Shown: one piece after another, positions 57,347 through 58,640 of the stretch
Layout of the letters: every line of letters begins with the position of its first letter
Numbering within the stretch: position 1 is the first letter of the stretch
Assembly: GCF_056746865.1 (NCBI RefSeq)
Contig: NZ_CM163382.1
Strand: one strand, 5' to 3'
DNA length: 64,000 nt
The notes under the pieces: generated by a model
The model's database searches: none
Seen by the model: only the letters and a program-made list of their open reading frames with translations
What the model was told of the DNA's origin: nothing
Made by a program: the position numbers and the translations under genes

Positions 57347-58122
57347 TTTGCCGTTTTATCGATACCCACTGCCATTTTGATTTCCCGCCTTTTAGTGGCG
57401 ATGAAGAGGCCAGCCTGCAACGCGCGGCACAAGCGGGCGTAGGCAAGATCATTGTTCCGGCGACAGAGGCGGCAAATTTTGCCCGTGTGTTGGCATTAGC
57501 GGAAAATTATCAACCGCTGTATGCCTCGTTAGGGTTGCATCCGGGGATGTTAGAAAAACATAGCGATGTGTCTCTTGATCAGCTACAGCAGGCGCTGGAA
57601 AGGCGTCCGGCGAAGGTGGTGGCAGTGGGGGAGATCGGTCTGGATCTCTTCGGCGACGATCCGCAATTTGAGAGGCAGCAGTGGTTACTCGACGAACAAC
57701 TGAAACTGGCGAAACGCTACGATCTGCCGGTGATCCTGCATTCACGGCGCACGCACGACAAACTGGCGATGCATCTTAAACGCCACGATTTATCGCGCAC
57801 TGGCGTGGTTCACGGTTTTTCCGGCAGCCTGCAACAGGCTGAACGGTTTGTACAGCTGGGCTACAAAATTGGCGTAGGCGGCACTATCACCTATCCACGC
57901 GCCAGTAAAACCCGCGATGTCATCGCAAAATTACCGCTGGCATCGTTGTTGCTGGAAACCGACGCGCCGGATATGCCGCTCAACGGTTTTCAGGGGCAGC
58001 CTAACCGCCCGGAACAGGCCGCCGGGGTGTTTGCTGTGCTTTGCGAGTTACGCCCGGAACCTGCGGATGAGATTGCCGAAGTGTTGCTTAATAACACATA
58101 TGCGTTGTTTAACGTGCCGTAG
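57343..58122 (+). CDS. yjjV: YjjV, TatD-family metal-dependent hydrolase/DNase
   Basis: 259 aa with TatD signature HCHFDF near the N-terminus; start overlaps the yjjU stop. Confidence 0.85.
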   Translation: MICRFIDTHCHFDFPPFSGDEEASLQRAAQAGVGKIIVPATEAANFARVLALAENYQPLYASLGLHPGMLEKHSDVSLDQLQQALERRPAKVVAVGEIGLDLFGDDPQFERQQWLLDEQLKLAKRYDLPVILHSRRTHDKLAMHLKRHDLSRTGVVHGFSGSLQQAERFVQLGYKIGVGGTITYPRASKTRDVIAKLPLASLLLETDAPDMPLNGFQGQPNRPEQAAGVFAVLCELRPEPADEIAEVLLNNTYALFNVP

Positions 58123-58640
58123 GCCGGATAAGGCGTTTACGCCGCATCCGGCAGTTGGCGCACAATGCCTGATGCGACGCTTGACGCGTCTTATCATGCC
58201 TACAAGTCTGTGCCGAACCGTAGGCCGGATAAGGCGTTCACGCCGCATCCGGCAGTTGGCGCACAATGCCAGATGCGACGCTTGACGCGTCTTATCATGC
58301 CTACATGTCTGTGCCGAACCGTAGGCCGGATAAGGCGTTCACGCCGCATCCGGCAGTTGGCGCACAATGCCTGATGCGACGCTGACGCGTCTTATCATGC
58401 CTACAGGTCTGTGCCGAACCGTAGGCCGGATAAGGCGTTCACGCCGCATCCGGCAGTTGGCGCACAATGCCTGATGCGACGCTGACGCGTCTTATCATGC
58501 CTACAGGTCTGTGCCGAACCGTAGGCCGGATAAGGCGTTCACGCCGCATCCGGCAGTTGGCGCACAATGCCTGATGCGACGCTTGACGCGTCTTATCAGA
58601 CCTACAAGTCTGTGCCGAACCATAGGCCGTATCCGGCATG
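58121..58640. repeat. BIME array: five tandem ~100-bp REP-pair units plus a degenerate sixth, between convergent yjjV and yjjW
   Basis: Units begin at ~58121, 58221, 58321, 58421, 58521, each taggccggataaggcgttcacgccgcatccggcagttggcgcacaatgcctgatgcgacgcttgacgcgtcttatcatgcctaca.. Confidence 0.85.

Follow-up and report, generated by a model that had tools for sequence, protein, structure and literature searches.

BIME-2 arrays (BIME, bacterial interspersed mosaic element), the anatomy of their Y and Z2 repetitive extragenic palindromes (REPs), their length polymorphism between strains and their targeting by the insertion sequence (IS) IS1397 have been described since the 1990s. An array of this kind separates the convergent genes yjjV and yjjW in a 64,000-nucleotide stretch of contig NZ_CM163382.1 (assembly GCF_056746865.1), which is referred to here as the window. 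The array is very probably an ordinary member of the Escherichia coli BIME-2 family, namely a five-unit allele of the REP352 locus, with units that are gained and lost locally and a length that is close to neutral. Both the element type and the locus are already known, REP352 having been catalogued in K-12.

BIME-2 elements consist of z2 and y REPs in inverse orientation, repeated in multiple tandem copies with short linkers, while BIME-1 elements combine y and z1 REPs in a single copy with a long, IHF-binding linker (PMC3333891, PMC1187871). According to PMC1187871, which cites Bachellier 1997, BIME-2 at one locus varies in copy number between strains; length polymorphism of these elements has been documented since 1997. 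REPs terminate transcription, stabilise mRNAs and serve as topological insulators (PMC3333891). Gyrase binds BIME-2 elements and its cleavage is enriched there, with a preference for y REPs, whether or not rifampicin is present (Sutormin 2018, PMC6379681). In vitro, the transposase TnpA-REP cuts BIMEs, recombines them and is able to build tandem copies, for which models have been proposed (Ton-Hoang 2012, PMC3333891). The RNA of REP325, named naRNA4 and described by Qian 2015 as Y plus Z2, is a discrete species of about 77 nt that binds the protein HU and condenses DNA together with it (PMC4550694). The EcoCyc entries REP352a-h correspond to the K-12 yjjV-yjjW locus and overlap yjjV by 2 nt; REP352 is among eight K-12 REP regions that are exonuclease-protected under sodium dodecyl sulfate (SDS) or copper stress (bioRxiv 10.1101/2024.07.17.603846). 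The same preprint, citing earlier work, also states that a REP located ≤15 nt from a stop codon lowers translation via ribosome stalling.

Architecture and classification of the array

Tandem Repeats Finder reports a single array at 58117-58629 (period 101, 5.1 copies, 97% matches, 0% indels, score 956), and the start-to-start spacings of the direct repeats are 101, 101, 100, and 100 bp. The full array (58117-58640) comprises five head-to-tail units of 100 or 101 bp and a 21-nt terminal piece. A preliminary description of the locus, made from the DNA letters alone, had proposed five near-identical tandem units of about 100 bp with two REP palindromes each; direct reading of the sequence, the repeat finder and the spacings all agree with it, and the head-to-tail arrangement removes the doubt it had raised as to whether the units are truly tandem. 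In each unit, the dinucleotide CC is followed by a 35-nt Y REP (GTAGGCCGGATAAGGCGTTYACGCCGCATCCGGCA), a 12-nt tail-to-tail linker (GTTGGCGCACAA), an inverted Z2 REP of 37 or 38 nt (TGCCTGATGCGACGCT(T)GACGCGTCTTATCATGCCTAC), and a 16-nt head-to-head linker (A[A/T/G]GTCTGTGCCGAACC). In total there are five Y REPs and five inverted Z2 REPs, to which the terminal Y with its internal deletion is added.

All five units lie on the + strand and fall into four types. Unit 1 (type A, 101 nt, 58117-58217) carries its Y REP at 58119-58153 and its inverted Z2 at 58166-58203, joined by the linker GTTGGCGCACAA and closed by the head-to-head linker AAGTCTGTGCCGAACC. Unit 2 (type B, 101 nt, 58218-58318) has a Y REP at 58220-58254, an inverted Z2 of the GCCAGATG variant at 58267-58304, and the linker variant ATGTCTG. 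Unit 3 (type C, 100 nt, 58319-58418) has a Y REP at 58321-58355, an inverted Z2 at 58368-58404 with a loop shorter by one T, and the linker variant AGGTCTG; unit 4 (type C, 100 nt, 58419-58518; Y REP from 58421, inverted Z2 at 58468-58504) is identical to it. Unit 5 (type E, 101 nt, 58519-58619), which holds the position of the last unit in K-12 and other alleles, has a Y REP at 58521-58555 and an inverted Z2 of the CAGACC variant at 58568-58605. The units are 96-100% identical to one another at edit distances of 0-4, types A, B, C, and E differing by 3-4 changes each. The sequence variants quoted in the preliminary description (GCTTGACGCG versus GCTGACGCG; CTACAAG, CTACATG, and CTACAGG) are all present.

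What had been taken for a degenerate sixth unit is instead a terminal Y REP (58620-58640, + strand; CCATAGGCCGTATCCGGCATG) with an 18-nt internal deletion (CCATAGGCCG^TATCCGGCATG) bounded by GCCG direct repeats. This terminal REP adjoins the yjjW stop codon, and its full-length form is kept in isolate 30345_1#31, in ETEC1738, and in Escherichia albertii.

Every sequence-level feature of BIME-2 is found at this locus. The five 35-nt Y REPs (GTAGGCCGGATAAGGCGTT(C/T)ACGCCGCATCCGGCA) start on the + strand at 58119, 58220, 58321, 58421, and 58521; they were recognised by a GTAG-headed palindromic unit that we take to be the Y consensus, and the 5′ hairpin of the Rfam naRNA4 model lends this assignment independent support. 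The five inverted Z2 REPs alternate with them and match the second hairpin of that model. The linkers are short (12 and 16 nt) and the unit is repeated in tandem (5.1 copies). The array is extragenic, overlapping only the stop-codon region of yjjV, and its length is polymorphic (0-5 units across E. coli), as has been reported for BIME-2. Insertion of IS1397 is seen in another strain, L1PEag1, and not in the window itself. The earlier identification of paired REPs forming a BIME array between the two convergent genes therefore stands and can be narrowed to BIME-2.

Pattern scans of the array found no match to the IHF consensus WATCAANNNNTTR on either strand and no Z1 REP. A BIME-1 element was ruled out, the array having neither Z1 nor an IHF consensus and its unit being repeated five times. 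A CRISPR array was likewise ruled out: the whole 100-bp period recurs at 96-100% identity, unique spacers are absent, and successive REPs have opposite orientations.

The Rfam family RF02564 (naRNA4; gathering score 59.5 bits) matches all five units over its full length (model positions 1-77 of 77) on the + strand with 70.4-79.1 bits. Unit 1 scores 78.8 bits (58122-58200), unit 2 70.4, units 3 and 4 79.1 each, and unit 5 77.4, while matches on the − strand of the array (51-58 bits) stay below the gathering score. Fold prediction assigns a single Y hairpin −23.3 kcal/mol (z = −3.6) and the whole array, folded over 58100-58660, a z of about −11 on either strand. The deleted terminal Y (−13.9 kcal/mol, z = −0.64) has no significant hairpin. 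In the minimum-free-energy structure, long REPIN-like hairpins span the head-to-head linker and join each Z2(n) to the Y(n+1) of the following unit. On the − strand the centroid structure is almost unpaired within the array, and the predicted ensemble is therefore highly degenerate. An inverted-repeat search returned 0 inverted pairs in the array, which reflects the seed limit of the tool: the REP stems are imperfect and shorter than its 9-nt exact seed, and both folding and the covariance model show the hairpins.

Copy number across E. coli

The array with its flanks was searched against 5,426 complete E. coli genomes. A second query, made of the flanks without any REP sequence and able to join gaps of ≤1,300 bp, found the locus in 5,423 of the 5,426 and gave the same ladder of lengths, with none longer. 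The span of array plus flanks takes values of 1401/1402, ~1301, ~1200, ~1099, ~998, and ~916 bp; the length classes are separated by clean 100/101-bp steps, and unit markers are coherent. Copy number was then estimated from two samples of 59 complete genomes, each taken in even steps down the similarity ranking and pooled (n = 118). Five units occur in ~28% of the sampled genomes, four in ~16%, three in ~7%, two in ~19%, one in ~27%, and none in ~3%. Four units are carried by K-12 and BL21, two by CFT073, O157:H7, and 536, and one by Nissle 1917 and ATCC 25922; ETEC1738 has no unit and retains a lone Y REP in a 33-bp gap. No E. coli array exceeds five units among the 118 sampled genomes and 60 close relatives of the window, with gaps of up to 1,300 bp being joinable. 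The comparison of copy number across strains, which the preliminary description had called for, accordingly yields a range of 0-5 units in E. coli.

Alleles of the same length are not the same in composition. Five-unit alleles from several lineages (the window, EC958, and MRSN346595/ETEC4067) have differing mosaics of units, and the first and last units retain position-specific markers across alleles. The locus can serve as a clean, phylogenetically informative marker of the variable-number-tandem-repeat type, its range being 0-5 units for E. coli and reaching 11 within the genus. Short-read assemblers may collapse it.

The locus is split by more than 1.3 kb in about 27 of the 5,423 genomes. 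In the one that was inspected, L1PEag1, an annotated IS1397-family element (~6807-8275 of the retrieved record) sits in the loop of a lone Y REP; the junction reads GGCGTTT, the IS, and GTTTACGCC, with GTTT duplicated on both sides. IS1397 is a BIME-specific IS, and insertion into the REP loop is its classic behaviour.

Turnover of units

The most recent history of the array was read from the 60 best-matching complete genomes, each of which has 1.6 kb of flank 100% identical to that of the window. Array length equals that of the window in 57 of them; the remaining three comprise two with a difference of 1 bp and one that lacks 100 bp. Short-read assemblies are prone to errors at tandem 100-bp repeats. 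The preliminary description had named an assembly artefact as what would undo it. That the assembler collapsed or expanded the repeat is nevertheless vanishingly improbable, given the shared length in 57 of the 60, the 1,401 bp that are 100% identical in the independent complete genomes FDAARGOS_497 and E1654, and the clean 100/101-bp length steps.

Among flank-identical strains, the order of units is A-B-C-C-E in the window, A-B-C-E in ST3, A-C-C-C-E in 118UI, and A-B-B'-C-E in MEI008. One unit was thus duplicated or lost recently. A duplication from C to CC is supported, with unit 4 probably the latest addition, because units 3 and 4 are identical and ST3, whose flanks are identical, has A-B-C-E. 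Duplication, loss, and conversion continue to affect the internal units, and those at the two ends do not change.

The suggestion of a recent amplification in the preliminary description holds for this last step, for which the identity of units 3 and 4 and the shorter ST3 allele speak, and fails for the array as a whole. A strain-specific burst, by which all five units would have grown from a single one in this lineage, draws on the same two observations and on the 96-100% identity of the units, yet it is highly improbable. Types A, B, C, and E each differ by 3-4 changes; five-unit alleles with varied mosaics make up ~28% of the sample, including EC958, MRSN346595, and ETEC4067; the end units are positionally conserved across alleles; and the 57 flank-identical genomes of equal array length come from varied isolation sources. 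Moreover, multi-unit arrays are present in Escherichia whittamii, Escherichia sp. E1V33, and Escherichia sp. MOD1-EC7003. The multi-unit array as a whole is old and common to other Escherichia species, and the comparison between species suggests that multi-unit states are ancestral at deep nodes.

The local gain and loss of units may come about when the 100-bp direct repeats misalign, by homologous exchange or by slippage during replication, and the REP-associated transposase TnpA-REP/RAYT possibly helps. The B' unit of MEI008 is informative here, since it would most simply be explained by a single misaligned crossover between a C and a B unit, placed within ~10 nt inside the Z2 arm. We infer that B' favours homologous exchange over site-specific cleavage. 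Copy-number change driven by the Y1 transposase itself, through site-specific cleavage and strand transfer instead of homologous misalignment, has a precedent in the cleavage and recombination of BIMEs in vitro by TnpA-REP, which can assemble tandem copies (Ton-Hoang 2012). It is nonetheless rather unlikely at REP352: the crossover in B' falls between markers ~10 nt apart in the Z2 arm, away from the cleavage sites at the REP foot and linker; perfect 100-bp direct repeats suffice for RecA-dependent exchange or slippage; and mobilome sequencing found no circular BIME intermediates for REP352 (bioRxiv 10.1101/2024.07.17.603846). With unit duplication, loss, and conversion occurring between fixed ends, the close relatives of the window offer a handy natural system for measuring rates of BIME turnover and for weighing RecA against RAYT.

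Arrays in other Escherichia and in other genera

A scan of a genome collection with a back-translated YjjW motif gave 43 orthologous loci for comparison between species. At the yjjV-yjjW gap, E. albertii has one unit and the full-length terminal Y, Escherichia sp. E1V33 has two Y+Z2 units and ends in a deleted terminal Y as in E. coli, and E. whittamii carries four units and diverges at the right end of the array. The cryptic-clade strain Escherichia sp. MOD1-EC7003 carries 11 units and the deleted terminal Y, 23 REPs in all, in a 1,117-bp gap (Tandem Repeats Finder, 10.9 copies at 3258-4351 of the retrieved locus). This array is about twice the size of the largest E. coli allele and exceeds the two to twelve palindromic units quoted for BIME-2 of K-12.

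Outside the genus, the gap measures 5 bp in Yokenella and 32 bp in Salmonella diarizonae, both without a REP, and most Citrobacter have 0-2 REPs in it. In Citrobacter youngae ATCC 29220 (6888-7363 of the retrieved locus) and Citrobacter portucalensis, the same gap holds a tandem BIME array with a period of 84 bp, 5.7 copies, and 96% matches, in which a Z1-like REP (GTAGGCCTGATAAGCGAAGCGCATCAGGCA) is paired with a different inverted REP. Because period, REP types, and linkers all differ, the Citrobacter array has an origin independent of that of Escherichia, and it is the only mildly unexpected result of the analysis. In nine loci from Kluyvera, Pseudocitrobacter, Pluralibacter, and related genera, the gap is ~1,418-1,440 bp long with few or no REP heads, which suggests an extra gene between the convergent pair.

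Whether certain convergent gaps are favourable to arrays of this kind is a modest question raised by the independent Citrobacter arrays. That arrays of unrelated REPs arose separately in Escherichia (100/101 bp, up to 11 units) and Citrobacter (84 bp, ~5.7 copies) is the ground for supposing that the yjjV-yjjW gap is positively selected for them, a long run of cruciform-forming, gyrase-binding palindromes being useful in itself. If so, the array could absorb the positive supercoils that convergent transcription generates or could block read-through in both directions, and its copy number would tune the effect. Convergent 3′ gaps are, however, a generic REP habitat and many strains lack an array, which makes such selection distinctly unlikely.

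Flanking genes and transcription signals

The genes on either side are yjjV, encoding a metal-dependent hydrolase of 259 aa (57343-58122, + strand), and yjjW, encoding a glycyl-radical enzyme activase of 287 aa (58641-59504, − strand; stop codon at 58641-58643). Both were delimited from the list of open reading frames (ORFs), and their names derive from the RefSeq annotation of FDAARGOS_497, the locus of which is 100% identical over 1,401 bp. yjjV overlaps the upstream yjjU by 4 nt and yjjW overlaps its upstream neighbour yjjI, giving two convergent operons. As an aside, the record of E. coli O157:H7 FRIK2455 lists yjjI, whose product is the glycyl-radical enzyme that partners YjjW, as a pseudogene with a frameshift. 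ORFs of 42-122 aa that cross the array were discarded as spurious, for they consist of repeated REP sequence in shifting frames.

From stop to stop, the convergent gap measures 518 bp and is wholly taken up by the array, in agreement with the preliminary description; unit 1 even includes the yjjV stop. A scan of 57800-59000 found no sigma-70 promoter and no intrinsic terminator in the gap; its one terminator-like match, located within yjjV but on the other strand, is no more than chance would give.

The TAG stop codon of yjjV (58120-58122) is the TAG of the GTAG head of the first REP, and the last two codons together with the stop (C-terminus LFNVP*) are REP sequence. E. coli alleles fall into two haplotypes at this end (58105-58122 in the window). 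In haplotype (a), found in the window, K-12, and CFT073, yjjV encodes 259 aa (…LFNVP*) and stops within an intact first Y. In haplotype (b), carried by EC958, O157, and Nissle, it encodes 260 aa (…FSVSG*); a small hairpin, GGGTAgttTACCC, comes next, and the first Y beyond it has lost 18 nt internally. With these two 3′ ends, one with a REP-supplied stop and one ending in FSVSG*, the C-terminus of YjjV has been remodelled by REP sequence.

The stop-proximal Y REPs on both sides, that of yjjW in nearly all alleles and that of yjjV in haplotype (b), have a like 18-nt deletion between GCCG repeats. These deletions abolish the hairpin, and the internal Y REPs are intact. They could have arisen by palindrome-stimulated slippage, or they could relieve a stalling of ribosomes that the REPs would induce at these stops.

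Possible roles and their weight

By analogy with the family literature, the array DNA would be a preferred, transcription-independent site of gyrase binding and cleavage. At the RNA level, its hairpins would give structured 3′ ends to both convergent transcripts, yjjUV and yjjIW, which otherwise end without an intrinsic terminator, and may there shield the RNA from exonucleases and bring about partial termination. Because the stem of the first REP begins directly after the yjjV stop, REP352 lies within the ≤15-nt limit of the published rule for REP-mediated damping of translation. That rule is reportedly due to Liang, Rudd and Deutscher in 2015.

A stronger claim would be that the array is a selected module: a gyrase sink or topological insulator, a bidirectional 3′-end element, a source of naRNA4-like RNA processed from yjjV read-through and acting with HU on the nucleoid, or a combination of these. 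In the yjjV-sense orientation each of the five units exceeds the naRNA4 gathering score, and REP325, with its six Y+Z2 units, yields naRNA4 and DNA condensation with HU (PMC4550694). BIME-2 elements are strong gyrase sites, REP352 is one of the eight exonuclease-protected regions seen with SDS or copper, no other terminator is present in the gap, and independent 84-bp arrays occupy it in Citrobacter. The naRNA4 model, on the other hand, fits effectively any Y+Z2 unit, the other BIME-2 elements of the window included, and a match therefore says nothing for a function as naRNA. Many E. coli strains have 0 or 1 unit (~30% of the sample), the gaps of Salmonella and Yokenella (5-32 bp) have no REP, and most Citrobacter have 0-2 REPs. 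A selected module is thus unlikely. The occurrence of 0-5 copies in healthy, successful strains argues instead that array length is close to neutral.

Several points weigh against the assignment to an ordinary, locally turning-over REP352 allele with family-typical properties. The REP352 label rests on the preprint's citation of EcoCyc, and RefSeq annotates no repeat feature at the K-12 locus (NC_000913.3 and a derivative). The text of the gyrase Topo-Seq supplement (PMC6379681) makes no mention of yjjV or yjjW. The structure of the RNA in vivo is uncertain, because the predicted minimum-energy fold departs from the two separate hairpins of the Rfam naRNA4 model. The mechanism of gain and loss is deduced from one recombinant unit, and the copy-number shares are sample estimates from 2 × 59 genomes.

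Other elements in the window

Two further BIME-2 elements of the window pass the naRNA4 gathering score. One, on the + strand at 50289-50520, consists of two units with a period of ~111 bp and a partial third Y; it carries variants of its own (GTAGGTCGG…, GCCAGATG…TCTGGCCTAC) and adjoins a tandem row of three tRNA genes (49833-50152, − strand). The second, on the − strand at 62102-62181, has just one unit. An Rfam match to the SymR antitoxin RNA (12264-12340, + strand; 95.3 bits against a gathering score of 61) implies that the window probably includes a symE/symR type I toxin-antitoxin locus.

Comparison with known systems

The closest described system is REP352a-h of K-12, which is the orthologous locus and shares with the window the flanking genes, the Y/Z2 unit, the deleted terminal Y, and the REP-supplied yjjV stop. 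It differs in having four units (eight full REPs) against five (ten full REPs) in the window, and its internal units carry other combinations of variants.

REP325, the six-unit BIME-2 between yjdM and yjdN of K-12 that gives rise to naRNA4, is likewise a tandem Y+Z2 array, and the window units match the model built on it. It is, however, another locus with another linker sequence; transcription, HU binding, and effects on the nucleoid were demonstrated solely with REP325.

BIME-1 elements (RIB/RIP) belong to the same REP superfamily, contain a Y REP, and are extragenic. Unlike the array described here, which is tandem and has neither Z1 nor an IHF consensus, they occur in single copy with a Z1 REP and a long L linker bearing an IHF site. 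The REPINs of Pseudomonas and E. coli, which are mobilised by RAYTs, pair inverted REPs into a long hairpin much as the predicted fold of the window array does, but they are usually dispersed doublets, whereas the doublet of the window is tandemly amplified in place. The program RAREFAN did not call REP352 a RAYT-associated REPIN (bioRxiv 10.1101/2024.07.17.603846).

The array of C. youngae and C. portucalensis resembles that of the window in occupying the same gap with head-to-tail units of two inverted REPs each, in ~5.7 copies. It is set apart by its 84-bp period, its combination of a Z1-like with a Citrobacter-type REP, and its unrelated linkers.

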